The notes beneath the pieces were generated by a model. It ran no database searches. It was not told the DNA's origin and saw nothing but the letters and a program-made list of their open reading frames with translations. A stretch of DNA of 64,000 nucleotides. It comes from Candidatus Omnitrophota bacterium. Its GTDB lineage: Bacteria > Omnitrophota > Gorgyraeia > Zapsychrales > Zapsychraceae. The stretch is taken from NCBI GenBank assembly GCA_035292445.1, contig DATDQB010000010.1, positions 3,563 to 67,562 on the forward strand, written 5' to 3'. Position 1 is the first letter of the stretch; every line of letters starts with the position of its first letter. Both the position numbers and the translations under genes were made by a program. Below are positions 7,769 through 64,000 of the stretch, piece by piece.

Positions 7769-8232
7769 TCCGCTACTTGAAATTTTGTTCCCAATTCTTC
7801 AAAGACAATTCTTGCGACCGTCCGCTTAGCCGTCGATGCTAAGGAAGAAACGTCCACCCGGATCGTTTCCAGGCTGGTGCGGGTGAAGAAAATGCCGACC
7901 TCTGTCGTATTCACGCTTCCTTCAACGCCCATGACGATAATGTAGGGAGGGCTCGCGTATAGATCCGACATAAATATGTCAAAGACCCCCTCATCTATTT
8001 CAGGAGGCTTCACCCAAGGTTTAGCCGATGGCTTATAGCGGCCTAAGCGCATTATGGCCTCGAAGCAATCCTCGTAACTGCAATGGAATGCCTTGCTGAT
8101 GCCGTCTTGGCTGGCCTTATCTTGCAATGTTTGGGTTGAGGTGCCAACGATTCTTTTGGCCGCCTCTTTAACAGAGCAACCTTGAAGGGGCATCATCAAG
8201 GCAATAATAATAAAAAGATATCGTAAATTCAT
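7765..8232 (-). CDS. Hypothetical lipoprotein
   Basis: Signal peptide with lipobox (LQGC); no recognised domain. Confidence 0.5.
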   Translation of the reverse strand: MNLRYLFIIIALMMPLQGCSVKEAAKRIVGTSTQTLQDKASQDGISKAFHCSYEDCFEAIMRLGRYKPSAKPWVKPPEIDEGVFDIFMSDLYASPPYIIVMGVEGSVNTTEVGIFFTRTSLETIRVDVSSLASTAKRTVARIVFEELGTKFQVAE

Positions 8233-9461
8233 GACGGCCTTTGGACGGCTTTGTTAAGCGTTTCGATGTGGACCTTAAAATCCTCGCAAATCTTCTCTAA
8301 CCCGACGGATTGCGCCCTTGCCTTGGTCAATTCATACTGAAGGATCTTTTCTTTCTCCTTCAAGTGCACATTGAATTCCTGAGCCTTCTGCAATTGCGCA
8401 CGCAGCTCTTCATTCGCCTGTTTTAGCTCTCCGTTGTGCCGTCGTAATCCCTCCAAAATATTCTTGGACTCTTCATCCAGGGAAGATTCCCGCTTCGATT
8501 CCCCAACGCCCTGAAGGGCCATGATCCTATCCGCCGCCTGCGCCAATTTCTGCTCATAGGTCAGCTTGGCGACCTCAAGATCTTCCTTGAACTGCCTGGC
8601 CTGCTCTTGGGCTTCTTTCAGCTGACTCAAAAGCGCGCGGTTACTTTCTTTATGTTGGGAAAGTTCGGCCTCTATCTTTCTAAACTTACCTTCCATTTCA
8701 TTCTTATAAAGGATCAACTCGTTGAATTCTTCCCATTTTCTCTCCATGCCTTCTTTACTTTGAAGAAGCTTTTCATTTTCTTCCCTGAGCTTAAGAATGT
8801 TGTTCTGCAACGCCTCTTCTTTCGACCACTCGATGCTCTTTTGATGATCGAACTCCGCCTTAAAAAGAATAAATTTCTTCTCCAGCCCATCAAAACGCTC
8901 ACGCTCGGCCGACACCTGCCTTTTTAACTCCTCATTCTCGACGGTCAATTGCCCGAGAGACTGCTGGGCATGTTCCCCAAGATTCTTAGCTTGAGCCAGC
9001 TGTTGCTGCTCCTCTTCGCTCAAAGTAACAGCATTCTTACTGGAGAGCTCCCGGTCTAACGCATCTTTCAATTGTTTGTTTTCCGCCTCAAGCCGTTCAA
9101 TGGTTTCCTGAGCTTTCTGAAGGCCCGCCGCTTTGACGCGTTCTGCCATTTGGGTATGAAGTTCCGGAACCTCCGGCTTCTGTTCCGGGAAGCTCGCTGC
9201 GGCAGCTGCTTTGGGGGAAGGCGTTGGCGGCGCCTGCTGCGCCTGCGCCATCTGGATCAGCTGGGAATTGGTCAATTTCTTTTTGGGAAGTGCGCTGAAA
9301 TTTTTCTTTAACGCTTTTATTTCTTCAGGGTCCGAGATCGGCACAGCCGTTCCCGTCACTTTGGAGGATTTCTTTCTTTTCTTAATAGCTAAATAACTCA
9401 ACCCGGCGACTAAGACCAGCGCCACTAAAATTGTTGCCATTAATTTCCTTTCTACAACCAA
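8229..9461 (-). CDS. Membrane-anchored coiled-coil protein
   Basis: N-terminal TM helix (ILVALVLVAGLSYLAI) then long E/K/Q-rich heptad-like sequence. Confidence 0.5.
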   Translation of the reverse strand: MVVERKLMATILVALVLVAGLSYLAIKKRKKSSKVTGTAVPISDPEEIKALKKNFSALPKKKLTNSQLIQMAQAQQAPPTPSPKAAAAASFPEQKPEVPELHTQMAERVKAAGLQKAQETIERLEAENKQLKDALDRELSSKNAVTLSEEEQQQLAQAKNLGEHAQQSLGQLTVENEELKRQVSAERERFDGLEKKFILFKAEFDHQKSIEWSKEEALQNNILKLREENEKLLQSKEGMERKWEEFNELILYKNEMEGKFRKIEAELSQHKESNRALLSQLKEAQEQARQFKEDLEVAKLTYEQKLAQAADRIMALQGVGESKRESSLDEESKNILEGLRRHNGELKQANEELRAQLQKAQEFNVHLKEKEKILQYELTKARAQSVGLEKICEDFKVHIETLNKAVQRPS

Positions 9462-11217: not shown

Positions 11218-14200
11218 TTATTCCCTTATACCTATAGGTTCTTTTCTTTCGTAGGCTTTGGAAAGCTCTAAGGAGCTAGCGGAATGCTCTGCCAGCGGTT
11301 CGGGCTCTTCTTGGTCAGTGATCCCTAAAAGAAGGGGTAAATTCGTGACAGGGATAATCTGGTAAATGATCGGCGCAAAACCGTTGATCGGCATGGTTTC
11401 CAGCTTCTTTAATTCTTCCGGTAAATTGAATTCTATCGCCCTCCCGCGCTCTTCGATGTCCAACATATCAGGATTCAAGTCAATACCACCGACTTTATCC
11501 TTCTCTTTAGCCCCCATCATCGCCCGGTCGGGTTTGTTGTCTGCCGGACTATTGGGAATAATTATTGAAACAATGGCTCCATGATTATCTCTACGATTTT
11601 CAAACTTTAATGTCCAACCGACATCTTGAAAGGCCCAGCTTAGCGAGATGACATCGAGGCCAGACCTTCCCCAAAATGGTGTATCTTCCGAAGGTATTTT
11701 GGGTGTAACCACTTGCTCTTTTCCCAATCTCTCTAATATTTCAGGCGATATGCCAGTGCCATTATCGATGACTTGAATCAAAATTTGTTGATCTCGAACA
11801 GCTGCTTGTATTGTAATTTGACCTAACTGTCTTGCATTACTACCGTGTTGAGCAAAGATGGCATCAATGGCATTGCGATACAAATCATCCATCCTAGCAT
11901 CCAGATATCCTCGATTTGTCCATTGCGAATGGTCCGTAGGATACCTCTTAAATTGGCCTGACTCTTCTAATTTTAATGTTAATTTTTTCCCGGCTTGCCG
12001 CAAAGCAACAAGAGCTTGTTCTCTCAAATCATAATTATCCGAAACTTTAAATTGGTAAAACTGTACCGTTTCTTCTCCCACCATCGCGGTGTCGGCTTGA
12101 GCGGCAATTTTCATGGCCGCCACGCTCATATCATCGATTTTTCTAAACCGGTTTTCTCTCTGTTTGTCTTTAGCATGGGCCGCAGCTTGATTTCTGATAG
12201 CCCTACTAAAATCGTTCATATCCTCGAATTGATCGGCAAACTGCGCAACGGAATCTTCAAACTCCTTTTTACTTTTAGTAAAATTTTCATATATCCCATC
12301 GGAGACGGAAAAAACTATATCATCAAGTTCAATGTCGACTATACCATACTGCCAATCTTGCAATTCATGACCGCGTTCCAGGCCTATCCCATCGCTAAGA
12401 ATAGCACTGTACATGTGCCCTATCGCCTGTTCTTCTGTCATAGAACCTGTGCGAATAAACTCTTGCGCAAAGGTATCATCCTGCGTTAATTGGATCAACT
12501 GCCGTTTGCGTTTGCTCCATGCATAAATCCGGCTATCCCCCTTGTTAAAGAAAATAACCTGCCTTTTCCCCGATACGGTTTCCTCACGAATATGAAATAA
12601 GCTTAAAGTGGTTTCAAGCTTATCCTCCTTTTGATCTGTAAGACTATTGACCATTTTATATTCTGCATAAGCTGCTTGAATTTTCTGAACCAAATCTTCC
12701 CAGATCGGTTTTAATTCTCCCCTCGTACGCACTTGCGCCAGAATATCCACCTTTAGTTGATCAAGCGAAACTTCAACAGCTAATCGAGAAGCAACTCCTG
12801 AATATTTATGATCGCCAACACCATCGGCCAAAGCAACGGCTCTTTTAACCCGGTTCACATCGGTATAATCTTTGTTGGGACGAGCCCGAAGCGTATCTGA
12901 AACCATGCCGGTCCGTACATGCTCATCCGCTATCATGGCGCGATCTAAATCACCATCGATAGGAGAACTAATGGGCACTTGCTCCATTCGATTAAAAGCA
13001 TCGATCATTTTTTCAATACTGACCGATCTTCTTCTTTGCGCCATTGTTGCATTTGGCCTTAATCTCATTTCGATCCGTTCCGGTATGGTGTTTCGAATAA
13101 TGTGATCCACATACTGCCAGCGGCCAAACTCCGCGCTCCGACGCAGACCAAACCGCTCATAATTTGCCAAAACATTAATGGTCGGCTCCCCATTTCTCAT
13201 GGTAGGAATAAAATCGGGCCTGATACCCATCAAGGAGGTAAACGGCTCTATTTTCCCTTCGAGACCACCATTCTCAAAACGATAATGGCCTTGATGCGCC
13301 AACTCGGCGGCAATATATAATAGTGCAACTATAGGATGCAAGCCGAGATCCTGAGGAAAAATCTCATTAATCAATTTCTGCTTGCCGGAAACGCCGTGGA
13401 CCAAATTCACCCTGATCGTGTCTTCTTGCGTGTCCAATCCAATACGGGCAAAAACACCTTTCATAGGGTCAACGCTGTCTCCTTCTTCTCCAATGACCAG
13501 GTAAATACCATGCGTATTTTCTGCTAATCCGTATTTCATCGCAATAAAATATGACGTTCCAGGAATAGTGGCCTTTAAAATGGCTTGGCCATTAATAAAT
13601 TCGGGGGAAAACATACCCGTCATTCTTTTCATATTCGAGGTTGGTAATATCAATTTCTGATTATCATCGATTCCCGGAGGCAGAAAATAAACATACTTCT
13701 CCCTTAAATTAGAATAACGTTGATAGGTATCGATAGTTGTGTCAATAAAGTCTGCGAATACTGCATCAGAGACAGCGCTCAAATTTATTCCTTCTTTATT
13801 CAGCCACTGCATTACATTAAAAATGATATCGGAAGTAATCTGCCATTTATGGCTTAAAGCGTTTATCCACGCCTGCGCATATCGCTTTTTCCCGGAGGTA
13901 TATAATTTAGTAATATGAAAGAATATTTTATGGATTAAAGCGGGTGTGGGAAGGCGGTCTTCTTTTCCAGTATCGCCCCAAGCCATGATCTGTTCTTTAT
14001 CTGTATCCGTGAATCCCCATCTTCCTTGAAGAGCACGCACCTGAGGCGCTGTTTCTATAAGGCCCGCCATTTCTTCTGACAACATGGCGTTATCGGTTAA
14101 AGATGGTCCCAATAATCGCGTTACATCCGTGACACTTTCCCCATCGCGGCCTTTGGCATCTAACACGGCAGAGGCGATTATGGCATGATTAAAATTTTGC

Positions 14201-15318
14201 TCAACCCTAGCCGCGAATTCCGGGGCATCGACAACCAGCATGGCCTCATCCACTGCCATTTTCGCCCCACCGGAAAAATACTTTCGTGGAATGACTTCCT
14301 GGGTGGCGGGATCATACTCTTCTTTGATGTAATTGTAGACCCCGACCTTAAAGGCCTCTAAATACTGCTCGTAGATCTTTTGTTTCACTTGTTTGTCTTC
14401 GACGTCCACGCCCTCTGTTTTATTTTGATCCACGTAAATTCTGTTGAGCAAATGCCCCTCAAGTTTTCTCTTGAACCACGTGGCTAAGATCAATGAATTG
14501 TAGATCTGGCGCAAATTGGCGAAATTCTTGCCTTCGTTGACTTCCTTCTCGATCTCAGGAAGAATCACCTCCCTCATCATTTCAGTCATCAGTCGTCGGT
14601 CTTCAGTCGTCAGACCTTCCTCTGACGTCTGATGACTGATGTCTGATGACTGACTAAGCGCCAAATAGTCTTCTTCCAACATCACCTTCAAATGCGACTC
14701 CACCACAAAGGCCGTATCGCCGTTCTCATAGACAACCGCTTTTTCAGGAACGATCCACACTTTATTGAACGTGTTGACCGGAATATCGCTGGTGCCGTAC
14801 AATTCATAAGCCCTCTGATGGATCCTATCCCAGAACTTCTTGCCCAATTCTTCCTCAGGATAGATCAGGCTTGCCGTTAATTGTTTAAGCAAATAATCCT
14901 GCGCCAAAAGGTCGCGCCCCATTTCCGTTATACCGAAACCCTCCGGCACAATGCGGTCCTTTTCATACGGCGAGAGATTGACCCACAAGTCTTCTTTGGG
15001 CACGGTCAAACTGGCCAGAAAATATTTGACCAATTTGTCGGCTTCAAGGCGCAAGGCCTCGTCTTTGAGGTTGCTTTCGCCTGTATCGATAATGAAATCA
15101 AAACGAAGCGGATTATCGGCGTAAATTTTAATGCCTTTCATCAAAGGCGGCGTGAAGGCGACGCTTGGCGGGAGCAACGTTCCCGGGGAGACAAGCGGTA
15201 AGGCCGCTTGCGCCCACACGAGTGAAGGAAGATAGACCGTTGAAACAAAAAAGACAACGGCAATCGTGGCGCAAATAAACTTAAATAATTGTGATTTTCT
15301 TAGAATATGTATACACAT
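11218..15318 (-). CDS. Giant modular protein (1366 aa): signal/TM, conserved N-cap, unknown module, PP2C-like phosphatase, GHKL (HATPase_c) module, conserved C-cap; paralog of the 4345-aa protein
   Basis: N-terminal hydrophobic segment; PP2C motif ALADGVGDHKYSGVASRLA...SVSDGIYE; HATPase_c motif IQVIDNGTGISPEILERLGKE...GRSGLDVIS; N-cap and C-cap about 60-70% identical to the 50935..63972 protein; five D-x-A-M-[VLIM] junction motifs. Confidence 0.8.
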   Translation of the reverse strand: MCIHILRKSQLFKFICATIAVVFFVSTVYLPSLVWAQAALPLVSPGTLLPPSVAFTPPLMKGIKIYADNPLRFDFIIDTGESNLKDEALRLEADKLVKYFLASLTVPKEDLWVNLSPYEKDRIVPEGFGITEMGRDLLAQDYLLKQLTASLIYPEEELGKKFWDRIHQRAYELYGTSDIPVNTFNKVWIVPEKAVVYENGDTAFVVESHLKVMLEEDYLALSQSSDISHQTSEEGLTTEDRRLMTEMMREVILPEIEKEVNEGKNFANLRQIYNSLILATWFKRKLEGHLLNRIYVDQNKTEGVDVEDKQVKQKIYEQYLEAFKVGVYNYIKEEYDPATQEVIPRKYFSGGAKMAVDEAMLVVDAPEFAARVEQNFNHAIIASAVLDAKGRDGESVTDVTRLLGPSLTDNAMLSEEMAGLIETAPQVRALQGRWGFTDTDKEQIMAWGDTGKEDRLPTPALIHKIFFHITKLYTSGKKRYAQAWINALSHKWQITSDIIFNVMQWLNKEGINLSAVSDAVFADFIDTTIDTYQRYSNLREKYVYFLPPGIDDNQKLILPTSNMKRMTGMFSPEFINGQAILKATIPGTSYFIAMKYGLAENTHGIYLVIGEEGDSVDPMKGVFARIGLDTQEDTIRVNLVHGVSGKQKLINEIFPQDLGLHPIVALLYIAAELAHQGHYRFENGGLEGKIEPFTSLMGIRPDFIPTMRNGEPTINVLANYERFGLRRSAEFGRWQYVDHIIRNTIPERIEMRLRPNATMAQRRRSVSIEKMIDAFNRMEQVPISSPIDGDLDRAMIADEHVRTGMVSDTLRARPNKDYTDVNRVKRAVALADGVGDHKYSGVASRLAVEVSLDQLKVDILAQVRTRGELKPIWEDLVQKIQAAYAEYKMVNSLTDQKEDKLETTLSLFHIREETVSGKRQVIFFNKGDSRIYAWSKRKRQLIQLTQDDTFAQEFIRTGSMTEEQAIGHMYSAILSDGIGLERGHELQDWQYGIVDIELDDIVFSVSDGIYENFTKSKKEFEDSVAQFADQFEDMNDFSRAIRNQAAAHAKDKQRENRFRKIDDMSVAAMKIAAQADTAMVGEETVQFYQFKVSDNYDLREQALVALRQAGKKLTLKLEESGQFKRYPTDHSQWTNRGYLDARMDDLYRNAIDAIFAQHGSNARQLGQITIQAAVRDQQILIQVIDNGTGISPEILERLGKEQVVTPKIPSEDTPFWGRSGLDVISLSWAFQDVGWTLKFENRRDNHGAIVSIIIPNSPADNKPDRAMMGAKEKDKVGGIDLNPDMLDIEERGRAIEFNLPEELKKLETMPINGFAPIIYQIIPVTNLPLLLGITDQEEPEPLAEHSASSLELSKAYERKEPIGIRE

Positions 15319-50928: not shown

Positions 50929-50995
50929 GGGTTATCAGGGTATCTGGTTATCAGGAATAAGCCTGATATCCTGGTATCCTGATGTCCTGATAACC
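50929..50995. repeat. Cluster of GGTTATCAGG (x2) and inverted CCTGATNTCC/CCTGATAACC (x3) decamers spanning the stop codon of the giant gene
   Basis: gggttatcagggtatctggttatcaggaataagcctgatatcctggtatcctgatgtcctgataacc. Confidence 0.6.
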
Positions 50996-53900
50996 TTTTC
51001 TTGTCTAATCGCTTTTGATAATTCAAAACCGAGGCCGTTCCCTTCCGCCAGCGGTTGCGGTTCATCATCAGCTATGCCTAATAATAGAGGAAGGTTCGTG
51101 ACCGGCGTAATGGAATAAATGATCGGGGTAAACCCTGTGATCGGCATGGTCTCAAGAATGGCGGGATCGAACTGTAGATCCATCCCCTGCCCCTGCGTTT
51201 GCAGCTCCAGCATGTCGGGGTTCATATCAATACCGCCGACATCTTTACCCTCAGCCAGAATCTCCGATTCTGGCGAGACCTCGCCCGCCTCTGGCGGGCG
51301 GGCCACCATCGCCTCATCATCGACTTCCGTTCCCATGCCCAGATCCCATCCATACTCGTCAATCGTTAGGATTTTCACGATTCTTTCCAACAAATCTCTT
51401 GCTTGAGGTCCGTCAACCTTAATAACCACTTGATCCCCTCTTACAAGCCCTAATGATATTATATCTGTTACTTCACTGATAACTTCTGACTCACCGCCAA
51501 CACCTAAAACTAAGGAATTACCAGGGTATCTATGCATCAACTCAATTATTCTTTCAGCTGGTCTTATATGTACACCGGCTGCTATGGCAACCTCTACCGC
51601 TTCTTCTGCTGAATTATCTTCATTTAATTCATCAAAACCTCGCGCCCCCACCATCGCCCGGTCAGACCTGTTTTCCGAAGTGACCGCTCGCCTCTCGGCT
51701 CCGCCGAGAGAGGCCTCGCCCATTGGGCGGGCCCGGTCATTCCCTGCTCCTCTTTCAATAATTAACCCCTCTTCCTTTAATTCCTCAAACCAACCCAAGA
51801 TATCTTCCTGCGTTATAGACCGAATCGCCTCAACATACCTTGACCAATTTGTTTCTCTTCCTACATTTTCAATAACATACCTAAACGCTTTACCATGAAT
51901 ATAAGAAAGGGCTCCATACGAGATATCCTGATTGAACATCAGCAAAGCCAACTGTATATTTAAGTCAGCTGAAATTCTAGTCCCTATTAAATGTGCTCCT
52001 TCTTGCTGTTCATATGGCCTTAAGATTTCATCACTCAGATAGTTGGAGTGGCTAAGAAGAATTTCTTTGGCCGATACCCCTATTACCTGATCGATATCCT
52101 TCTGTATAGATTCCGGCGTTTCTCCCGAGACAATTAAAGCATGCTCCATGTCCTCTAATTTCTTTTTATTTTCGGTATTTCGAGAAATTCTTTCCTGTTC
52201 AAATAATTTTCCAAGATAATACAGCTCTGAAGGTGTCAATACGGTAATAACATTCTCCATGCTGATTCCTGATTGAGCAATGACTTGATCCGACCTACGG
52301 TTACCAAGAATGCGAACCAAATAAGACCGGACGACCCTGTTATTAAGACCGCGCGCTGTTAAAACCTCCTTAGCCAATTCAACGCGGTGATTAACGACCG
52401 CTAGACTCTGTGTGAACAGATTTATTGAAGAAGGACGACTCATAAAAACAAACCCTAAGCGATCGCTGATTTCTGGATTATGTGCGGTGGAATCTCGATA
52501 GGGAATCCCATGGCGTTCAAAGATCATATATTCGTAAAGATGCGAAAGTTCACTTCCTAAGAGAAATAAACCACCCGTTACTGTCGGCTCCGTTATATTG
52601 CCGCCGGCCCAAGGAGGCACACCCTCTTCATATGTTGCAAAACCTCCTCCTGACCAGGGCGAACCAAAATAGGGAAACCAGACATGTCTCTTGATCAAAC
52701 CATTAGGCAATTGTCTTAAGTATGAATTATCAAAGAATTGGAGATTCTTGGCATAAGATAACCCAAGTAAAAATTCTCCCAAATCATCTTTGTCTATGTC
52801 TTGCTGCACAAGGATAGCATTAATTCGATCCGCTTCCGCTTGAACGGATACAGAATATCGGCCTGCTTGGTGATAATCCAGGAGCGCGTAAATCAAAATA
52901 TCTTGATCAGTTAATCCATCAATAAATTCCTGGCTATAAGCCGGATAGGCCCCTAAACGATTTCGAAGACGTGGGACAAGTTCCCGCTGCAACCAGCTTT
53001 GGTACCCATCAAGGTTTTCCACTCCAACCAAACTCAAAAATAACTGCTCACTCTCAACAACCGAAAATAAATTATTCTTACTAATCTTCGACAAAATATA
53101 CACCGCTCCTTGAAAATGTTGCAAATACACAGACTGCCGTTGTCTATCCTCTATACGATCAATGGCTTCCATGCGCCTTATGAATTGTCGAATGGCCTCG
53201 ATTTTGGTTATATTGATCAAATCAAACACTTGGAACATCACATTATACTGCGGATACTGCATCATGAGGCCTAAGCCCTCTCTTAGGATTTGCTCATCCC
53301 CTGTCCAGCGATGCACAATGCCTGCCAATTGAAGGATAACATTGCGGTGACTGATGTCTGATCTATCCACTTTAACAGCATGATACATCGAATCAACGTC
53401 AAATCCCTCCAAAAGAATATCCTGTCTTTTTTTCGATAAACGTGCCATATAATAAAATATTTGGATTGCCTCAAAATCATACGATATATTCTCAATCAAG
53501 TTTTCTTCTGTAATATGTGGACCCATCATTTCTTGCCACAGCCTCAAACCACCAGGGACATTAACTATTGTGTTTCCTGAAAGCTCCAAATAAGGCAATG
53601 TGGGCACCAGCCATAAGCCTATCGAGGCAATATTTTCACTGCGAATCCATTGCGCTATATTAATATGTTCTAAAGCAAAAATTTGCTCTTGCAGGCTCAA
53701 ATTGTATAAAGCACCTCTGACATATTCATTAAATAGATTAAGTTCTTCATTACTGAATACTGCGGCTCCAATATTAAGCAAGATCCATTCTCGCACAGCA
53801 GGTTCGAAATCTTCTATTAACGGGATAAGGCTGGGATTTGCCGTTTGCGCCACTTCAATTTTCTCTCTCAAAAATTCTAACGTCTCCGTTGGTTTTCCGG

Positions 53901-56900
53901 CATGCTCTTGAGCCAATATAGAACCTGCTAAAATGGAACCGATTGCCAAACTTCTTTTAATGTTCCTTAATGAAGAATCCCCCACCATCGCCCGGTCATC
54001 AAAGGCATTGGGTACGCGGCCCCGGGGCTGCGGCATTTCCTCAAATCTTTCTTCTTCAAAAACCATCATTTCTTCCGGGACAGGAGGCTCGGGTTCCGCT
54101 GGAAGGCGGACAAGTTCATCATCCACGATCGCGATATCGGAAGGCCTGATATCACGGACAAGGATCCCCGCCGCGATTAATCTGTTCCTGATCTCATTAA
54201 TGGTCAGCTCTTCTTCCATTTTGAAGGTATCGATAGTGAATTCCTCCCCCGCTCTCATATATCGCCCGTCCTCGAATTCCGTCAATCGTCTGATAACATG
54301 GGTGTCCGGATCGTCAATGATAATGTCCTGGATCCCAATACCAAGAATTAACGCTATCTCGGAAGCAAACACTTCTTTGACAATCATCACCGCCACCATC
54401 GCATGATCAACTGACTGCCCCATATCTATTGCGTGTTGAAATACCACTAACTGGCCATTGTGCCCCTCTTCAATAACAAACCCCGCCTGCGTAAATTGCT
54501 TTTTAACAAACGCTGGCATACGATGGTCGACCTTCTTGCCATAATCTGTCTCTCGGTGGTAGAACGTCGCAGCCAAAATACCGCCGGGCTTCAATATATC
54601 CTTTAAGCCTTCGATGAAAAGCCCCGTTCTTTCTTGCGACCACACCCCGCCTTGATCGGTCAGGGCATAGTACAAGACAGAGGCCGCCACAATGACATCA
54701 AACTTCTTAGGGAGCGCAGACAGCTTCAGAATATCCATGCGTTCGGCTTTAACGCCGTATATGCGCCGCGCCAATCGAGCCCCGCGCCAGCTAAGATCAC
54801 CAGCCGTTATGGTAGCGCCTTTTTCTTTCAACCAAGGGATCATACGGCTGTCCCGGCCCGGTCCGATCTCCAAGGCATCAATTCCCTCCCAAACCCGATC
54901 CAAATTCGTGAGATATCCGGCGATATAATCCGATGTGCCGCTAAAGAAACCGTCCAAATAATTAAAATAGCTCTTAAAGAGGCCTGGCCCGTAGATCGAC
55001 GGCTCATACCCCTCAGGTGGGATTAAGGCAATGCTCTCCTCAATGACCCGCTGAAGATTGTGCGCTGTTATAACAAAACCCTCTTCCTTAAGCTCAAACA
55101 ACCTAAAGACCACCCAATCGAGAGTATAAAAATCATATTGGCCGATAATACGCTGCAGTTCCTCCAAGATCAACGCGGCGATCGGCTGATAACGCTCCAA
55201 GACCTCCCTTAACTCAGGCAGGACGCTGCTGTCAAAGTACATGACATCCGCCATCTCAAAATCCGGATGGGCATATTCGGTTTTGGTTAAAATAATCTCG
55301 CGAATCTCCTCAATAGCCGCCATCGCATTATCGGCCGCATAAGGGGATTCGAAACGCAGCTCCAAGGCGTCGTTATTCTTGCCGTGGATGGAAGACAAAA
55401 CGACATTGCGGACGAGCGAAGGCATGCGGTACGCGCCAAGCCGTTCATGCTGCGGCCCTTTGCCGTCAGGCCCTTCCTTTTGCAGCAATCCCTGCCGCGC
55501 CAGGAACTCTGCCGTTCCGGTGTGGTATCCCTCCCATTTGACAACCCCAAATCCCGGCCGGCGCGCCTCATCGATCAACATATGCCGCGCATTGGTAAGG
55601 CGTTTCGTCCCGCCTCGATTAAGCTGTTGCAACTTGGCCCAGACCGACACTACCTGCTCGCCCGGTTCTTGGGTCAGATTCTTCAAACTGACTAACATCA
55701 CCCGGTCCCGACGCTCACTTCGTTCAGTCGGGACTCCGACCGAGTCTGCCTCTGGCAGACGAGCGTCGGAGTCGGATTGGTCTGCCGCTTTTTGTGCGGC
55801 AAGGATCAATTCTCCCATCCGATATCCGACGATCTTCAATAAAACGCCGGACCTGACCTTGTGTACAACGATATCGTGGATATCTTCATTGTCCGCACCG
55901 AACAATTTCAAAATTTCGGCATAGTACGGCGACTTTAGATATTCATCATCATGCGTTGAAATCTCTTGTTTTAATAGCCTTTGTGCCAGCTTTAAAACTT
56001 CCATATCGGTCACGGCTTCAACCGCGCGCTGCTGGTTGTATTCCGAGACGAATTGGCGGGCCAATAATTGAGCTGACTCTCCTAAATTTCTTTGGAAAAT
56101 ATAATAGGGCATGGGAATTTCGGCGCCAGGACGCGCTTCCATCCGCCTTATAATATTACCTTCGATCTTTTTATAAAAAGGATCTGTACGTTCTGTGCCA
56201 AGCTTAGCCGGAATGACCTTGAGTGATGACTCCCAATAAGCATCGATATAGCCTTTCATTACGGCATTGGCATCATGGCGATGCAACAACCATAAGATGA
56301 CCGCTGTCCATTGGAAATATGGGTCCACCGCCACTTTTGAAAAATAAATGCTTCTGATCGGCTTTACCGGTATGTATGCTTTTCCTTTTTGAATCTTAGG
56401 ATGGCTAAGGGCCACAGCAACCGGCTTTCCTAATTCGTTAAGTACGGCAAAGCTAAGCTGGGGATCAAAACGGTTCGGGTCATCGGCCAATTCAATAACA
56501 TCCTGCTGCAGACTAAATGTTTGATCCGCCGCGATCAAGTTCAATAACCGTAAGAATTCCGGCGCCTCTTGTAAAAGAAGCTCTCTGGTCAATGGAACAA
56601 GCTTGAGACGCTCTCCCTTAACGACCAGCTCATCATGCCGCTCTAACCATTCTGCGGCCGGCATGCCATCGATTTGCTCACCCGCGAAAACCTTGGAATG
56701 CCCCGGCGCTACGTCGTAACCATCCCCCACCATCGCGGCGTCTCCGGCAAGGGCCTCTTGGAACTCAGGCATCCCTTCCTCATTGAGGCGCCATTTGGTC
56801 GTCGCCGCTTTTCGCTCTTGCCCTTCCAGGCCGCGGTAACCGACCAAAGAAATACTTTGAGGCCTTTTTTGCCCTTCATAATGCGCCATGATCTCCAGGC

Positions 56901-59900
56901 GTGACAGCTCGGCCATCCTTGTCCCCATGCGCATGTTCATCATTTTTCCCAGCCTTTTGCCTTTGGGAAGAGGGAAATTACGGTTCAAGATGCCGTGCTG
57001 CAAACCTGTTTTGCCGACAAAATCACTGATATCAACGGCCACGCCGTCAAACTTGCTTGATGAATAGACCTTTCGAATTAAATTTTCGATATCTTTTTTT
57101 CTGAGCTGGACCTGGTTGACCTGGTACACAGGCCGCGTTCCGTCCCAAAGCCAGTGACTTTCCCGGTATTTTTCTTCGCGCCCTTCGACCATTTTGTAAC
57201 CGATAAACGCCATGGCCTTAACACTGCCATCCGTATTGTAATGGACCACCCATTCGACTTTGGAAAGACCGGCGCCGATCTTCATGCTTTCTATATGGTC
57301 CGCCCCCCACAGTTCACCATTGGGCAATGGAAAGGCAACGCGGATCTGCCCGGTCCGCAAATTCGATTCGCCCAAATATTTTGTGAGATCGATCTTTCTC
57401 CACGGCACATCCAGCGTTTCTTGATACAATTCCCTGACCTCATCCCCGTTTCCAGGTTTATACCTGTATTCATAAGCTTCGCCTGTCCATTCCCAATAGC
57501 TGCGCTCCATTTCATAATCTTTCTCATAGATCCTTTTGAAACCTATAAAAGTAATCCCCTTCACGTTCCCATCGGACAAAAAGTCGACCTTAAGCAAAAC
57601 TTTCGACAAATTCTTTCCGATCCTCATGAATTCTTGAAAGTCCCACGTCTTTCCGTTCGGCAACGGAAAGGTCCAGCCGATCTGGCCAGCCTTCAATTTT
57701 CCCGGCCCCAAATATTCCGTGATATCGACCGTGATCGACTTCTGTCCTTTTGAATTCCTATAAAACATCTTGATCAGCTCATCAGGGTCCTGAAATTCAA
57801 AATGCGTTCCGTTCCACAACGCATAACTCTTTCTGGTGATTGTCTGTTTTGACCTGTTCTTAGAAAGCCCGATAAAGCTCACAGCCTTAAGCTGGCCATC
57901 CGTAAAATGCGGCACCATTTTAACCTGTATCAATTTACCCCCCAGATGAATGCTACGCCTTTTGCCGCCCCACGAGGCGCCGTTGGGCAAAGGGAACATG
58001 TCCCTTACGATCCCGTATATCAAGTGATTCCGGCTAAAATGCTCCGTGATATCGAGTTCCATTCCGTCAAACCGCGCGTCCGTAAGATGCGCCTTGATCT
58101 TCTCATTAAGCTCCCTCATGAAATCGACGTATTCCAATTCCTCCCCGTCCCAGCGCCATAAGCTTCGGTTGTATTCTTCATGCTTTGAAGAACCGTTTTT
58201 CTTATAACCGATGAACATGACGCCCTGGATGTTTACCCGGTCAGGATCCCAAATCACTTTCATCTCCACACGCGATAGGTCTTTACCAAGCCTTAACTGA
58301 AGGAGCTCCCCCACGCGTTTGCCGCCGGGCAATAGGAACGCCGCCCTTAAAGACCCTCTTTTAAGGTTAAAGGGCGTCAATAAACGGGAAATATCAACGA
58401 CGACATCATGAAACTCGGGGTCTTGATAAATATGCTGGAGTTCATTGATATTATTCAGGGTCTTTACGAACCGCCCGTTCATCTGTTTGCGCTCGACTGA
58501 TATGATTTTACCGTTATTTTTTAGAATAACATGGCGGTCATAACTGTTGCCGTTGTTGACAAAAACGTTGGCGTTGACGGTCCACGTCGCATGATACAAA
58601 TGATCAAAGACCGTATCCCCTATCTGATAGAAACTGTCTTTGTTCACCATCATCGCCCGGTCAACGTTTTGCCCCTTGTCCATGACGGACGCGAAAGAAG
58701 AATCAAGCATCCCCAGATCACCTATGTAGAAAATGTTAGAATGCCCTTTTTCATTAAACGGATGCGGCACGTGGACAAACTCCAAATTGTTTTGTCTGAT
58801 GAATTCCTCCGCCCGCGTTTCTTTTTCCCTTAAACGATAATCCGCCAACCCGCTTTCTTCGGAAAGCAACACCCGCCAAATCGCCAATGAAGGATGCCGC
58901 TGTAGCCGACGCTTAAGTTCCCCAAAAAGTTCAAAAAACTTATCCGCTTTCATGTAATAGGAATGGTTCGCGAAGGATTCGTGCCCCAAAGGATTTCTTT
59001 CTACCCGATCGATAAACTCTTCCTCACTCACAACGCGAGGCGCATTGAACAAGTAAATATCCGCGTCCGGCTGCCGGGTGAAACCGTCCTGATAAAAAAT
59101 CTTTACGCTTGCGGCCGCGCTCGGCGGAATCTGTCCCGTTTCCAGAGCAAATTGAAAATTCCAGTTGGCTAACATCACATGCATCGGATTAATGTCCGTT
59201 GCCCAAACACTTTTTGCGCCGGACTTAAGGACATTAAGAAGATCAATTCCTGTCCCGACACCGATAATTCCTATGTCTTTCCCTTCAAAAATGCCCGGAT
59301 TATCCAGAACGGCCGTCTGAAAATCAACACTATGTTTATCAATCGTCTCAAACACGTCAAAATTGTCGATAGAAAACATGGTGAATATTCCGCTGGTTCC
59401 CCATATCTTTCTTAGTCGCTCCTGAATCGGTAAAACTACTTTATTTGTTGTACGTTTTAACCGTATCGTCTGCGCATATGGTTTGGGCGCCGGCGTTTCC
59501 GGGTAAAGGAACGGGATGGCGAGCTGTGCCAGCATACGGGCATTCAATGACAACGATTCTTCCGCAGAAACAATAGCTTCGGAGATATCAAATAGCAGAG
59601 GTTCGCCCGTCTTCCTTTGAAACATAATGCCGTAAGAAATAACTTTATGCTCTCCAAATAACGGAGTATTCCCTTCTAACGACAGAAGATACCCTTCAGG
59701 CGCCACATCCTCACCGTAAAGCAATGCTGAGAAAAAACGGACTCCATCCTCGGTGAAAGTAAGCGGTTCATACCACATCCTGGCGCCTTCGATCAATTCA
59801 GGAACGTCCAGAAAAATTTTATCCTTGTCTTTGTCCAAAAAAGAAAGAGAATCAATGATCTGGCGGCCCACCATCGCTTGATCCCTTACCCCAGCCCCCT

Positions 59901-62900
59901 CTTCATCGGTTATCGTTATAATCTTGATGGCCTCTTTGACCGATTTTCGTATGCTGGGGCCTTTTCTTTGGAGGCTGAGTGCGCTTAGATAAGGATATCC
60001 TGAGGCCGGCACCGATAGATTATCTGAGGTCGAGGCGATAATAACGGGCATCGACAACGACAACGCTTTTAACCCCTCGGCGATGGCAAGGGCGGAGCTC
60101 TCTTTGCCTACAACGACGTCAAAGGAGAACGGGTCCTCCGCGATCGTCTCCAGGGCCCGCTGTTCATTTTCGGCGTGAACGACGTTAAACTCTTCATTCA
60201 TGATATCCATCAGACGCCCCCGGCTTTGCGTCGCATCATCGACGATCAAGACCGTCCGGATCCTTGAAGTTACCCGGCGTTTTAACCCGCTTTCGATCCT
60301 GACGGTCAATTTCCGGTTTTCGATTGTCGCCGTAATGCCATCCTGGGCACGCAGCATCCGGGCCATCTCCGATACAACCGGCGAAAGCGGCTGTTCTTGC
60401 TGCCATAGCTCATCAAGCCTTTGGGGCATATCGCCACCCAGCAACTGCGCCCAATGGAACAAACTTGTCAAATAACCGTGCCCTATTTGCGCCTTCCCCG
60501 ATTCAAATTGTTCCAGGGGAACAGTAGCCAGCTGTCCGAGCAGCTCCAGCATATCGGTATCATCGATGTCTCTGATGAGCTTTCCTATCATGGCCCGGTC
60601 TTCCTGCCCGCCTTCTCCGATCAATTTTCTTTGATGATCAATAATCTGCCGTTTTACCCGCTCGTCAATGGCTGAAACGGCCTCGGCCCCCCGCGGGAAG
60701 CCGTATTCGTCATAATGGGCGGCAATCAGCACCAACTTTAAATCTTCCATCTCTTTCGAGGAAAAACCGGTATTATTAAGTAGATATAAGCTCAACCATT
60801 GTTTGATCTCTTCGCCGTAGTACCATTGGGAGGCCTCTCGGCCGAAATCTCCGGAGATCTTCTGCCACTGCCTGGGCGTCAACCGGCTTAAATTCTTAGA
60901 AAACAGAATAACGGGAAGCGGCATTTCGGCGCCGGGGCCGTACACATTTTCCAAAGCCACTTCAGACCCATCAACCGGTTCACGCCGGCTGTTAAGGAGT
61001 TTATCAAGGTTCAGCTCCAGCCTGCGCTTTAAGACCTGCTCAACCGATTCCGGGTGTTCACGCAAGTATCGAAGGTTGACCGTATCCCCCTTGCTATCAG
61101 CAAGAATTATATTGCCCGCCAGAAGATCGTTGATGATCTCAAGCAAAACCCTCAACCCCATGGCCGGATGGGCCAACCGTCTTTCGTATTCAAGCAAAGC
61201 GTAACCGATAATATTGTATTTGCTCTTGTAGCCGTCCTCGGCCGTTCCCAGCACGTTCCAGTTGAGATCAAGCGACGCCAGCGCGTTGAAAACTTCCACC
61301 AACACGGACACAAAAAGTTCGCTCCGCGAGAGCGGGGAATCCCCGTTAATGAACTGGGCCTTAAATTGCTGGCCGTACTCTTTGCCCAGGCCGATCTGTG
61401 GATCTTGGCTCAGAGCGTATCCCGCATGCAATTTATCAATATCAAAGATCGACTCGTCATCCTGGTTATAGACCTCGATGGTCGCGATCTTGTTCTTGAC
61501 GGAAATGAACCGGGTGATGTCAAAAGGAGGCATGAAGAATTCTGTCTTCTTTCCCGAACGAACCCAAAGACGTTCCCGGACCTCGTTCATGAGCTCGTCA
61601 TAATCAAAACTGCCCGTTTGCCTTTTGACTTCCCCAAATGCCTGGTCAAAACTCGATGCAACGGTTTCCGACCAATGCGCGATCGGTTCTGTCCAATCAA
61701 GGCTCATATCGAACGTTGAACGGTTGACGACCCTAAAGTGTGTTTCCCCCGTCTTTGAGGCCGCGATCATCACGGACATAAAAACTTCTTGCGGGGCGAT
61801 TTTGTAAAGACTTACATCATTTCTGTCTCTGCCGAAATAATAGAGGGTGTCGGACTTAAGCTGCCAGCCCTTTGACATCTGGCTCCCATCACCGTTGAAG
61901 CGCCGGAAAATGATCTGGCCGTCTTCGATAAAAAGCTTAAAATGATATTCCCCGAACTGGATGGTGATCACATTGACGAATTTTGAACTCATGCTGTTAT
62001 CGGGAGCAACGTTTTCTGACCTGTCACTAAGCATGGCGTTGTCTTCGCCCATCGCGCCCTTTGGTTCGGGGCCGAAATAATCGCGGGCGATCTCCAGCCG
62101 CCGGATCACTTCGTCCATTTCGGGACGGTCTTCCATCTTTTCTGCCGTCATGCCTTCAATAAGCGCCTTTAAGCCGCTGTTCTCCCAATCGGCTGTCGAG
62201 ATCCTTTCCGTCTGGTCACTGAACACGGTACGTATCGTTTTGCCGAGCCCGTAAACATCGGAGCGTGGCACTTTAACTTTTTCGGGGGCTACATAATCAT
62301 CTGCGCCCCAATCCGTTTCCTGGCCGATAACGGTAGCGATGCCGTAATCGATGAGAAATATCTCTCCGTCATCATCAAACAATATATGCTCCGGTTTAAC
62401 GTCGTTATGGACGAGACCGGAGCGCTCGTGCAGTTGTTTCAGTATCTCCGCGGCCTTGAGAATAACTTCTATTTGATGTTGGGGCCACAACCTCCTGAAA
62501 ATACTCGATTCAATCGTCAAAGCATGGGCCGGTCCTCTCGTCTTGATGAAGATCCACCCTTTTTCATTGACCTGGATGGACAATAATCGCGGCACGCCTT
62601 CGATACCGGCCTTTCCTATGATGTCCAGCGCCTGCGCTTCGTTGAGCGTGCGGTCATTGAAGCCGGTCTTATAAAAAATATCCGGCGGGTCATTGAGCTG
62701 TTGCAAGACCTCTCCAGCGCCGCCCGCACCGACATCTCTTTTTTCATCATAATTAAAAGAATACGCCTCCAAATAACCTTTTAATCGGGGATCGGCGCTG
62801 ATAAGCGCAATTGATCCCTGGTAAGTAGGGACGACCATCGCCTGATCGGGCAGGCCTTCGCCTTCAGGCTTTAAACCGACCGAGGCGATGAGGGCGTGGT

Positions 62901-63972: not shown

Positions 63973-64000
63973 TAAACCCGTTATACTGAAAGTTATAACG

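Follow-up and report, generated by a model that had tools for sequence, protein, structure and literature searches.

Is the phosphatase-ATPase fusion encoded at this locus a partner-switching regulator, as a sequence-only reading had proposed, or do its shared ends and internal motifs place it among proteins of another kind? Here, we describe protein A and its larger paralog B, both encoded in the 64,000-nucleotide stretch of DNA analysed (the window). Protein A is 100% identical to database entry P0001 ('PP2C domain-containing protein [Ca. Omnitrophota]') from a Candidatus Omnitrophota metagenome-assembled genome (MAG), for which the NCBI gene model starts at M60. The features of the locus are as follows.

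11218..15318, (-): protein A, complete and intact ORF, 1366 aa + stop, ATG start
15211..15318, (-): predicted Sec-type signal peptide, residues 1-36, MCIHILRKSQLFK + hydrophobic core + LPSLVWA|QA (hydropathy and homologue form)
14266..15210, (-): N-cap core, residues 37-351, 'ALPLVSPGTLL…KGIKIYADNPLRFDF' to invariant 'PRKYFSGG'
14095..14265, (-): N-cap extension or spacer, residues 352-408, holding delimiter 1
14236-14250, (-): delimiter 1, DEAML, residues 357-361 (D-x-A-M motif scan)
14080..14094, (-): delimiter 2, DNAML, residues 409-413 (motif scan)
12946..14082, (-): cargo cassette 1, residues 413-791, ~380 aa, helical N-terminal half and β-sheet core
12931..12945, (-): delimiter 3, DRAMI, residues 792-796, with 'ISSPI' just before
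12094..12930, (-): cargo cassette 2, PPM/PP2C Ser/Thr phosphatase, residues 797-1075 (PP2C_2 and motif alignment)
12079..12093, (-): delimiter 4, DTAMV, residues 1076-1080 (motif scan)
11530..12078, (-): cargo cassette 3, GHKL (Bergerat-fold) ATPase, kinase-like, residues 1081-1263 (HATPase_c and motif alignment)
11515..11529, (-): delimiter 5, DRAMM, residues 1264-1268 (motif scan)
11320..11490, (-): C-cap core, residues 1277-1333, 'GGIDLNPDMLDIEERGRAIEFNLP…INGFAPIIYQIIPVTNLPLLLGI'
11221..11319, (-): variable acidic C-terminal tail, residues 1334-1366 (homologue tails 10-60 aa, acidic, not conserved)
50935..64000, (-): paralog B, >4345 aa, ORF running past the window end, caps as in A, 12 D-x-A-M delimiters

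Caps and cassettes

Five D-x-A-M motifs divide protein A into N-cap, middle module, PP2C, GHKL and C-cap, so named, and the protein carries three cassettes: a recurrent module (possibly GNAT-fold), a PP2C phosphatase and a stand-alone GHKL ATPase. Alignment bears out the earlier claim that both ends are shared with the larger paralog (A 31-360 with B 3-340, 62% identity; A 1232-1362 with B 4206-4328, 44%). The N-cap core shares 48-63% identity with 50 family members, and many of its residues are invariant; its AF2 model (pLDDT 72.8, pTM 0.71) and sequence found no match in Pfam, NCBIfam, PDB or BFVD, leaving a fold without known relative whose role we can only guess. The extension that follows is modelled as a helix and a strand (pLDDT 73-86 up to about residue 388). 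The C-cap, ~57 aa across the family (GGIDLNP…NLPLLLG) and present in 116/120 homologues, has no Pfam or NCBIfam match, no transmembrane (TM) segment with basic tail and no match to a known sorting signal; its mildly hydrophobic, proline-containing residues 1315-1333 are not convincing as a TM helix. Between its caps, paralog B carries Pkinase, methyltransferase and HPr cassettes (Pfam, E<=0.01); of the kinase, HPr and REC content previously ascribed to it, REC alone gave no Pfam match at that threshold.

Cassette 1 recurs at differing positions in 13 other family members (28-43% identity), flanked by delimiters in several of them. No sequence match was found in Pfam or PDB. Its AF2 model (pLDDT 87.5, pTM 0.85) gave weak Foldseek matches (probability <=0.6, E>=0.07), among which GNAT, FemX and LF-transferase recur, and by this structural comparison the cassette may have a GNAT fold.

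The PP2C and GHKL cassettes are not a partner-switching pair

Both enzymatic domains that had been called by eye score above their Pfam cut-offs, and the spans given for them (~12096-12938 and ~11530-12074, residues ~794-1074 and ~1082-1263) are exactly the delimiter-bounded modules. In full-length A, PP2C_2 covers residues 813-1033 with 58.6 bits (cut-off 24) and HATPase_c residues 1145-1255 with 28.4 bits (cut-off 26.4). Alignment against stand-alone PP2Cs finds the hallmark motifs in place (D817, D832/G833, D928, D1007, D1062), and the best matches are Stp1/IreP (NCBIfam) and tPphA (PDB, E 3e-10); the module thus appears to be a catalytically intact phosphatase of Stp1/tPphA type. Alignment of cassette 3 against its closest relatives identifies an N-box (N1149), a G1 motif (D1185-N-G-T-G) and a G2-like motif (G1217-R-S-G); no HisKA/DHp domain is present in this cassette, and its PDB matches (KinB, BCKDK, PDK) are weak.

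In partner-switching modules (RsbU/RsbW/RsbV, SpoIIE/SpoIIAB/SpoIIAA), as in A, a PP2C-fold phosphatase and a GHKL-fold kinase-like domain belong to one system. Rv1364c of M. tuberculosis is a fused form with the domain order of A, PP2C then HATPase, and both domains of A look catalytically competent from their motifs; on the partner-switching reading, A would be an RsbU/SpoIIE-like phosphatase fused to an RsbW-like kinase, with a STAS protein from another locus as their substrate. The subfamilies of both domains, however, are others: the isolated phosphatase fragment scores 16.8 bits with SpoIIE (cut-off 25) and 62.7 with PP2C_2, and the isolated ATPase fragment, earlier called RsbW/RsbT-like, scores 13.5 bits with the RsbW-type HATPase_c_2 (cut-off 27.4) and 32.8 with HATPase_c, making it a generic GHKL domain. 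No STAS domain was found in the 18 small non-overlapping ORFs of the window or in 9 neighbouring ORFs scanned separately, in agreement with the lack of such a partner reported before. An exhaustive HMMER search against 1.84e9 representative proteins returned 1603 matches; among the 150 listed, all but the identical P0001 best match one module only, PP2C or GHKL, which makes this pairing a one-off rather than a conserved unit. A delimiter separates the two modules, as it does every other cassette pair, the predicted location is exported, and we know of no sigma/anti-sigma logic for a periplasmic or extracellular location. The partner-switching interpretation is thereby largely refuted and we consider it highly improbable; the two modules are independently shuffled cargo, not a co-evolved pair.

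Delimiters are peptide-level, genome-specific motifs

The AM junctions noticed beside the modules prove to be five copies of D-x-A-M-Φ (Φ, hydrophobic residue; scored as D-x-A-M-[VILMA]) that bracket them exactly and lie far above chance. Protein A has five (residues 357, 409, 792, 1076 and 1264) against 0.07 in shuffled sequences, and B has 12 against 0.16 expected (maximum of 2 in 2000 shuffles). Across the family, 62/116 proteins have a delimiter in the 40 aa preceding the C-cap (6.7 expected), and 43/113 have one in the 40 aa that follow the N-cap (6.1 expected). Each genome keeps to one type of delimiter: those with D-x-A-M have 0 SSPΦ, and vice versa. Codons at the D-x-A-M sites vary synonymously, which argues for selection at the peptide level. 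The 'ISSPI' ahead of delimiter 3 of A is the delimiter type of other lineages.

A large family restricted to Omnitrophota

Protein A is a member of a very large modular protein family: at least 4910 homologues pass E<=1e-5, and wherever a source names the organism it is Omnitrophota or Omnitrophica. They share only the caps with A (24-32% query coverage), with a PRKYFSGG-type motif in 114/120. The common grammar is a signal peptide, a ~315-aa N-cap, 1–10+ shuffled cassettes, a ~57-aa C-cap and an acidic tail, in complete members of 638 to 3341 aa. Cargo Pfams include metabolic enzymes (PGK, PGI, PFK, GAPDH/aldolase, glycogen synthase) as well as Pkinase, PP2C, REC, methyltransferase, GNAT, NUDIX, HAD, DnaJ and HEAT. 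Species-representative genomes hold 532+ family loci, with at least 8 copies in isolate OFTM38, and 2.9 million viral contigs hold 3. The neighbourhoods of family members show no conserved gene dedicated to secretion, proteolysis or immunity. The source of A is a metagenome-assembled genome, in which a chimeric assembly or functionless fused pseudogenes might be suspected; an intact 4.1 kb ORF, conserved catalytic motifs and thousands of homologues with the same grammar from independent assemblies make such an artefact negligibly probable, and the family-wide recurrence refutes it. The host-associated or predatory lifestyle proposed earlier for the organism finds its support in lineage, A being identical to an Omnitrophota MAG protein and the phylum being described, in passages of the literature, as episymbiotic or predatory.

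Predicted export

An N-terminal signal or TM segment had been suspected, and by hydropathy and motif conservation it looks like a signal peptide: 79/84 scorable homologues likewise begin with K/R-rich residues, followed by a hydrophobic core and a (Y/F)A-Q site, and 81/90 have 'AQ' at the equivalent position. By analogy with the family 'YA|Q' site, cleavage is predicted after A36, or alternatively after A38. No other TM segment was found in A by hydropathy, and from these features A is predicted to be exported, as was first proposed. Were the N-terminal segment an uncleaved anchor, or unused, the protein would instead be a membrane-tethered array serving the producer cytoplasm, possibly with housekeeping copies of enzymes; the cargo is typical cytoplasmic enzymology and the M60 gene model omits the signal peptide. 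Conservation between A and B, however, starts at residue 31, upstream of M60, and positive charges precede the hydrophobic core, followed by a conserved helix-breaking 'LPP…(Y/F)A-Q', as in cleavable Sec signals. This Sec-like order places the cargo outside, and we judge the cytoplasmic arrangement improbable.

Comparison with known systems

MARTX toxins (Vibrio RtxA-type) leave by type I secretion without a Sec signal, carry glycine-rich RTX-type repeats and are cut after Leu by an internal cysteine protease. Like A, they have conserved N- and C-terminal regions around mosaic, strain-variable enzyme modules, which in MARTX are cut apart at the sites between them and passed into another cell. 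None of the MARTX hallmarks (type I secretion, RTX-type repeats, cysteine protease domain) was detected in A, and unlike MARTX its family includes ordinary metabolic enzymes as cargo. Type IX secretion (T9SS) cargo resembles A in its N-terminal Sec signal and conserved small β-rich C-terminal domain, and the 'A|Q' site of the family recalls the Bacteroidota 'Q-rule'; T9SS C-terminal domain models in Pfam and NCBIfam gave no match for A. To our knowledge, T9SS is not known in Omnitrophota, and its cargo has no common N-terminal domain, unlike A's family.

In polymorphic toxins (CdiA, Rhs and others), a conserved trafficking part and swappable enzymatic cassettes are likewise demarcated by short peptide motifs, with VENN and DPxGL marking recombination and/or cleavage points (Zhang et al., 2012, PMC3482391). 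These toxins have one variable C-terminal toxin and an adjacent immunity gene, whereas A's family places several cassettes between two caps, lacks a conserved neighbouring or immunity gene, and has much cargo that is not toxin-like. Polyvalent proteins of phages and conjugative elements also join 2-15 unrelated enzymatic domains in single chains that are believed to undergo delivery and processing (Iyer et al., 2017, PMC5512222), but they are encoded by mobile elements and have neither Sec signals nor caps, whereas the genes of A's family are chromosomal and hardly occur in viral contigs.

Within Omnitrophota, passages of two papers describe long or giant multi-enzyme proteins ('multi-enzyme metabolic clusters', Archaeovorins) (West-Roberts et al., 2023, bioRxiv 10.1101/2023.11.21.568195; Nielsen and Lui, 2026, bioRxiv 10.64898/2026.06.07.730766). 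According to such passages, 94% of the long proteins have a signal peptide or TM segments, and proteolytic processing of the giants is proposed at cleavage points stated to be unknown (West-Roberts et al., 2023). As there described, the giants resemble A's family in phylum, in having signal peptides or TM segments as the rule, in suspected post-translational cleavage and in cargo (methyltransferase, HATPase_c, GNAT, HAD, starch synthase, PGM, REC, ROK, NUDIX, Ser/Thr phosphatase). They differ in length, at least 10,000 aa, and in the numerous TM helices that many of them have, whereas A has 1.4 kaa, a signal peptide only and a strict cap-delimiter grammar; in passages of the 2023 and 2026 papers, no N-cap, C-cap or delimiter motif shared by the giants is mentioned. 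The capped enzyme-module family is apparently undescribed so far.

A candidate exported enzyme carrier

We favour, with rather better than even confidence, a reading of A as a Sec-exported modular enzyme carrier with fixed caps and delimiter-bounded interchangeable cassettes, possibly processed at the delimiters. Its architecture, family, delimiter statistics and signal-peptide features are observed; the steps are proposed. The polypeptide would be threaded through Sec and its signal peptide removed before the conserved Gln. The caps, the only parts under family-wide constraint, may be a common handle for onward export, anchoring or targeting, and the delimiters would be recognised by a trans-acting factor particular to each genome, the likeliest candidate being a protease that cuts the cassettes apart. 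Delimiter 1 of A lies within an AF2-modelled structured region, which counts against cleavage, and SSP-Φ puts Pro where D-x-A-M has Ala, awkward for one shared cleavage chemistry; alternatively, delimiters could serve as hinges, or gene conversion could be what keeps the motifs alike.

These same two points, together with the signal peptide, the caps, the lack of a conserved protease nearby and published topology predictions for long Omnitrophota proteins, which in the passages concerned favour membrane or envelope association, would suit an unprocessed scaffold: an intact exported protein, held by its caps in the periplasm or on the surface and displaying enzymes for the cell's own envelope or attachment physiology, with delimiters as hinge or capping motifs. 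Its ATP-dependent cargo (GHKL, Pkinase, PGK, PFK) would have no energy source there, however, and a passive hinge does not readily explain mutually exclusive, genome-specific delimiters under peptide-level selection; we regard such a scaffold as rather unlikely.

If A is an enzyme carrier, its released enzymes would act outside the producer cytoplasm, on the envelope or in an attached host or prey cell. GHKL ATPases, kinases and glycolytic enzymes require ATP, which the periplasm and the medium lack. Consequently, cargo of this kind would require delivery into another cell or an unrecognised topology.

Results

Protein A belongs to a large family of Omnitrophota proteins in which a signal peptide, a conserved N-terminal cap (N-cap), a changing set of cargo cassettes bounded by short delimiter peptides (D-x-A-M-Φ or S-S-P-Φ, where Φ is a hydrophobic residue), a C-terminal cap (C-cap) and an acidic tail follow one another. 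In the window, its intact ORF is accompanied by a larger capped paralog, protein B, and by two further proteins considered here:

11218..15318, minus strand: protein A, 1366 aa
10496-11131, minus strand: gene directly downstream of A, 211 aa, lipoprotein-like N-terminus (…LFICSGC…), no Pfam match
8229-9461, minus strand: 410-aa protein, N-terminal TM segment and long coiled-coil-like E/K/Q-rich region, no Pfam match
50935..63972, minus strand: paralog B from its listed ATG, no in-frame stop upstream, running off the window

The full-length A query returned at least 4910 homologues (E≤1e-5), and every homologue for which the source gives an organism is from Omnitrophota/Omnitrophica; A itself matches a protein from a Candidatus Omnitrophota MAG at 100% identity. 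Homologues align over only the first ~25-30% of A, save a few that also share its middle module. Among the best 120, the N-cap ends in a PRKYFSGG-type sequence in 114, and the C-cap, with the consensus GGIDLNP..L.LQ..G.G..F..P…L…I.GF.PVI..I.PVTNLPLLLG, is found in 116 and is followed by a variable acidic tail. A has the same layout, with an N-cap ending PRKYFSGG, delimiter-bounded cassettes, and a C-cap (GGIDLNP…PVTNLPLLLG) with acidic tail. An N-cap search of species-representative genomes found at least 532 loci, the best 80 of which are nearly all from Omnitrophota MAGs (one title gives no phylum) and include at least 8 copies in the isolate OFTM38; complete members in the listed loci are 638-3341 aa long (median 1519). 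Many listed assemblies (L001-L003, L009, L010 and others) bear the title 'uncultured Planctomycetales bacterium', which is probably a wrong taxonomic label given automatically to Omnitrophota MAGs. That the protein is an artefact, given an intact ORF and a family of this size, has next to no probability. Phage or mobile-element origin is rejected, with only 3 cap-family loci in 2.9 million viral contigs, and a role as a defence system is rejected for A, for which PADLOC returned 0 defence families; its matches on B are through generic kinase and methyltransferase domains only.

The public NCBI model of A (P0001, 1307 aa) begins at M60 and therefore lacks the signal peptide and the first conserved N-cap residues (15142-15318, minus strand). 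Since conservation with B starts at A residue 31 and the signal is found family-wide, the start is better placed at the ATG at 15318, and the M60 start is probably a misannotation of a type that may be common across the cap family. From there, A has a predicted Sec-type signal peptide with a (Y/F)A-Q site (heuristic, from sequence features) in the form typical of the family, in agreement with the N-terminal signal segment noted in the sequence-only reading. Among the best 120 homologues, 79 of the 84 N-termini that could be scored begin rich in K/R and continue with a hydrophobic core, a helix-breaking 'LPP' and a (Y/F)-A-Q site. Gln is nearly always at +1 of the predicted signal-peptidase site (A residues 34-38; 'YA↓Q', 'FA↓Q' or 'WA↓Q', with A-Q at the equivalent position in 81/90 of the best homologues), which is reminiscent of the Bacteroidota 'Q-rule', whereby an N-terminal Gln is cyclised to pyroglutamate.

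The N-cap is 48-63% identical over 50 members and retains many invariant polar residues (WVNLSPYE…TEMGRDLL.QDY.LKQ), indicating strong constraint. Neither cap has a model in Pfam or NCBIfam. An AlphaFold2 model of the N-cap (51-sequence alignment; pLDDT 72.8, pTM 0.71, moderate quality) contains long helices and three β-hairpins, with the fold running to about residue 388; Foldseek found nothing significant for it (best E 0.16 in PDB and 0.057 in BFVD), and an N-cap profile searched against PDB sequences matched in low-complexity cargo columns only. A sortase, exosortase or T9SS-type C-terminal sorting signal was rejected, as the C-terminus shows neither a TM-plus-basic tail nor a match to any model.

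The motif D-x-A-M-[VILMA] occurs in A at residues 357, 409, 792, 1076 and 1264 (5 copies vs 0.07 expected from shuffles) and 12 times in B (vs 0.16 expected). These sites divide A into N-cap, middle module, PP2C, GHKL and C-cap, so the AM junctions proposed from sequence to bracket its modules are borne out. Synonymous variation among the codons of the 17 sites in A and B indicates that constraint acts on the peptide. A DNA-level signal (recombination site or internal translation start) is rejected on this variation, on the lack of a consistent Shine-Dalgarno sequence upstream, and on the V/I/L/A that other lineages have in place of the Met. With delimiters defined family-wide as D-x-A-Φ-Φ or [S/A]-S-P-Φ and expectations taken from random cargo windows, 62 of 116 proteins carry a delimiter in the 40 aa upstream of the C-cap (6.7 expected), and 43 of 113 carry one in the 40 aa that follow the N-cap (6.1 expected).

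Delimiter type is genome-specific and mutually exclusive between the genomes examined (loci L004/L017, L020/L068 and L009/L024/L028/L064 against the window, L005-L049 and others). D-x-A-M is used in the window (17 sites), OFTM38 (15), JAGVNC (12) and CAZVZR (12), with essentially no SSPΦ; SSPΦ is used in JAFGFL (14), JAGOJP (9) and CAZIRV (6), with no D-x-A-M. Modules common to several lineages with punctuation set per genome would be expected were the delimiters recognised by a factor that the genome encodes; alternatively, the pattern could arise by gene conversion among paralogs. The only SSPΦ copy in the D-x-A-M genomes, ISSPI, lies directly upstream of the DRAM of delimiter 3 (A residues 786-795), as though both delimiter types were superimposed.

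Paralog B shares a head with A (A 31-360 / B 3-340, 62% identity) and a tail (A 1232-1362 / B 4206-4328, 44% identity); the middle is not shared. The residues before its listed ATG (VITFSITGL-M-PPRISFAQP; 63972-64000, minus strand) resemble the end of the family signal peptide, which, together with the lack of an upstream stop, places its true start past the window edge and makes 4345 aa a minimum length. Pfam recognizes three cassettes in B, each between consecutive D-x-A-M sites:

B residues 501-586, minus strand: Pkinase
B residues 3034-3134, minus strand: class I methyltransferase
B residues 4123-4202, minus strand: HPr

Among the ~10 other segments between delimiters, most are without a Pfam match. 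The kinase and HPr previously read in this paralog are thus present, and the REC domain read along with them is not detected by Pfam at E≤0.01.

Family-wide, precomputed Pfam assignments show a strikingly broad cargo: protein kinases, PP2C, HATPase_c, REC, methyltransferases and GNAT occur alongside phosphoglycerate kinase, glucose-6-phosphate isomerase, phosphofructokinase, GAPDH/aldolase, FBPase, PPDK, UDP-glucose pyrophosphorylase, glycogen synthase, phosphoglucomutase, ROK kinase and acyl-CoA dehydrogenase, and NUDIX, HAD, metallophosphatase, DnaJ, HEAT and TPR are also represented. The middle module of A (residues 413-791; window 12946-14082) is itself a mobile cassette of ~380 aa, whose position differs among the 13 other members that have it; in several it has a delimiter on either side, and it is the sole cargo of the smallest members (818-891 aa). 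It has no Pfam model. Its predicted structure is confident (pLDDT 87.5, pTM 0.85), and Foldseek matches to GNAT-fold acyl/aminoacyl transferases such as RimI, tandem GNAT, FemX and LF-transferase are weak but thematically consistent (probability ≤0.6, E≥0.07), which offers a lead towards a GNAT-like fold.

Both enzyme domains reported for A score over their Pfam cut-offs: PP2C_2 at residues 813-1033 (58.6 bits, cut-off 24; 62.7 in the isolated fragment) and HATPase_c at residues 1145-1255 (28.4 bits; 32.8 in the isolated fragment; cut-off 26.4, a narrow margin). The DNA ranges originally given for the two modules correspond to residues ~794-1074 and ~1082-1263. The PP2C module (PF13672) matches the cyanobacterial tPphA structures 5iti/2j82 (E 3e-10), and its best NCBIfam match is Stp1/IreP, with an Stp1 equivalog score of 72.5 bits against a cut-off of 230, making it a member of the PPM/PP2C family and not an Stp1 equivalog. 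Its closest relatives are ordinary phosphatases of 240-260 aa with ~30-35% identity (HMMER, 1.84 billion representative proteins). The metal-binding Asp motifs sought (xxD, DGxGG, GDSR, SDG, DN) align with those of stand-alone PP2Cs as NKD817, AD832GVGD, GD928SRIY, SD1007G and D1062D; with all PPM hallmarks present, the module looks catalytically competent.

The ATPase cassette is a stand-alone GHKL (Bergerat-fold) domain, with the N-box N1149 (NAIDA), G1 D1185NGTG and G2-like G1217RSG kept in its closest relatives. Weak PDB matches are to KinB, BCKDK and PDK and not to SpoIIAB/RsbW. The N-box follows the delimiter by just ~65 residues, and no HisKA-type Pfam domain is found in A residues 1080-1266 at E≤10; a classical two-component histidine kinase is rejected because the HisKA/DHp with its phospho-accepting His is missing upstream. 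The nearest relatives of this cassette are proteins without cap motifs, some long and some with a signal peptide (P0130, P0154, P0166, P0180 and P0202), that carry 'G[ML]EE' ('DLEE' in P0130) after the cassette, where A has 'DRAM'. This motif may be a third delimiter dialect, in related uncapped modular proteins.

The sequence-only reading had taken the PP2C and GHKL domains for a partner-switching enzyme pair. On the PP2C module, SpoIIE (PF07228) scores 16.8 bits (cut-off 25), and on the GHKL module, HATPase_c_2 (PF13581, the RsbW/SpoIIAB model) scores 13.5 bits (cut-off 27.4), so both domains are of the wrong subfamily. No STAS domain was found in A, in the 18 small ORFs of the window or in 9 scanned neighbours. 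A search with both modules (A residues 800-1266; HMMER, 1.84 billion representative proteins) gave 1603 matches, only 11 of them under 1e-10; in the 150 listed of these 1603, the best match falls in one module only, save for the identical P0001, so the pairing is unique and not a conserved unit. Partner switching fails every defining feature open to testing and is very improbable for A. What endures of the sequence-only interpretation is its picture of modular enzymes bearing an export signal; the PP2C+GHKL fusion is ordinary cargo.

The immediate neighbours of A are an epimerase, GH77 MalQ, a GH57 enzyme, a REC-EAL protein and an M20 peptidase; the 211-aa lipoprotein-like gene is not kept beside other family members. 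The minus strand carries 48 of the 51 non-overlapping ORFs of the window, and the cumulative GC skew declines monotonically, which places the window within one replichore with strong gene-strand bias.

Discussion

Beyond the observed grammar, family, signal-peptide features, cassette behaviour, delimiter statistics and catalytic-motif integrity, we infer a mechanism in which A would be exported by Sec and its signal cleaved before Gln, onward transport, anchoring or targeting would use the caps as a shared handle, the delimiters would be sites of processing, and the cargo would act outside the cytoplasm of the producer. The main difficulty is that neither the periplasm nor the medium offers an energy source for ATP-dependent cargo, which points to delivery into another cell or to an unrecognised topology. 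Episymbiotic or predatory biology, which passages of the literature propose for Omnitrophota, agrees with delivery into another cell. An array tethered to the membrane and facing the cytoplasm is decidedly improbable.

Extended to the phylum, this mechanism would become a 'cassette polyprotein' export system with delimiters cut by a co-evolving protease, a speculative proposal that we hold to be unlikely. Nearly any cytoplasmic enzyme could be inserted between a universal head and tail; the protein would be threaded via Sec and then carried onward by its caps; cuts would fall at genome-specific D-x-A↓M or S-S-P-Φ sites, and possibly at G-M-E-E in related uncapped proteins; and working enzymes (phosphatases, kinases, acyl- and methyl-transferases, even glycolytic enzymes) would be freed at the cell surface or in an attached host or prey cell. 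No conserved adjoining gene family (protease, secretion system or immunity) is found among the 80 listed loci. An envelope scaffold that stays unprocessed is a rival reading, to which we assign a low probability. As a bacterial analogue of viral polyproteins and of MARTX toxins, the cassette polyprotein, if real, would also supply the missing 'punctuation' of giant Omnitrophota proteins.

In layout, the family resembles MARTX and polymorphic toxins, in which trafficking parts are conserved, enzyme cassettes can be exchanged and short motifs mark the borders, but it has none of their defining sequence features. RTX-type glycine-rich repeats and a cysteine protease domain have no Pfam or NCBIfam match in A, and MARTX toxins use type I secretion without a Sec signal, whereas A carries a predicted Sec-type signal, so the analogy is one of layout only. 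A also lacks the C-terminal domain of type IX secretion cargo (no match to Por_Secre_tail / T9SS CTD models; Pfam E≤1, NCBIfam E≤0.01). The giant Omnitrophota multi-enzyme proteins have at least 10,000 aa, compared with 1366 aa in A and >4345 aa in B. In the available passages of two preprints (bioRxiv 10.1101/2023.11.21.568195; 10.64898/2026.06.07.730766), long and giant proteins of this phylum have the same Pfam repertoire as the cap family and mostly signal-peptide or TM topology, and both raise the question of their cleavage; the 2023 preprint (10.1101/2023.11.21.568195) describes the cleavage points as unknown, blocking further analysis. Those passages mention neither caps nor delimiters, and full-text literature searches for the cap and delimiter motifs and related concepts found nothing. 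Judged by the databases and literature searched, the cap family is apparently a distinct, undescribed one among Omnitrophota multi-enzyme proteins and modular effector carriers.

For A, a tempting misannotation is corrected, in that PP2C with HATPase_c is here not a stress-signalling partner-switching module. Omnitrophota are widespread, ultra-small and probably host-dependent bacteria noted for enormous multi-enzyme proteins. A simple machine-readable grammar governs thousands of their mid-sized proteins, and it provides a family definition missing from current databases (no match for the N-cap in Pfam, NCBIfam, PDB or BFVD, or for the C-cap in Pfam or NCBIfam). The delimiters are concrete candidates for sites of processing, or for boundaries, that can be sought in metaproteomes; long proteins can also be divided at them before structure prediction, and gene content that tracks delimiter type from genome to genome could reveal the machinery that reads them. 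The grammar is broad and makes the processing question directly testable.
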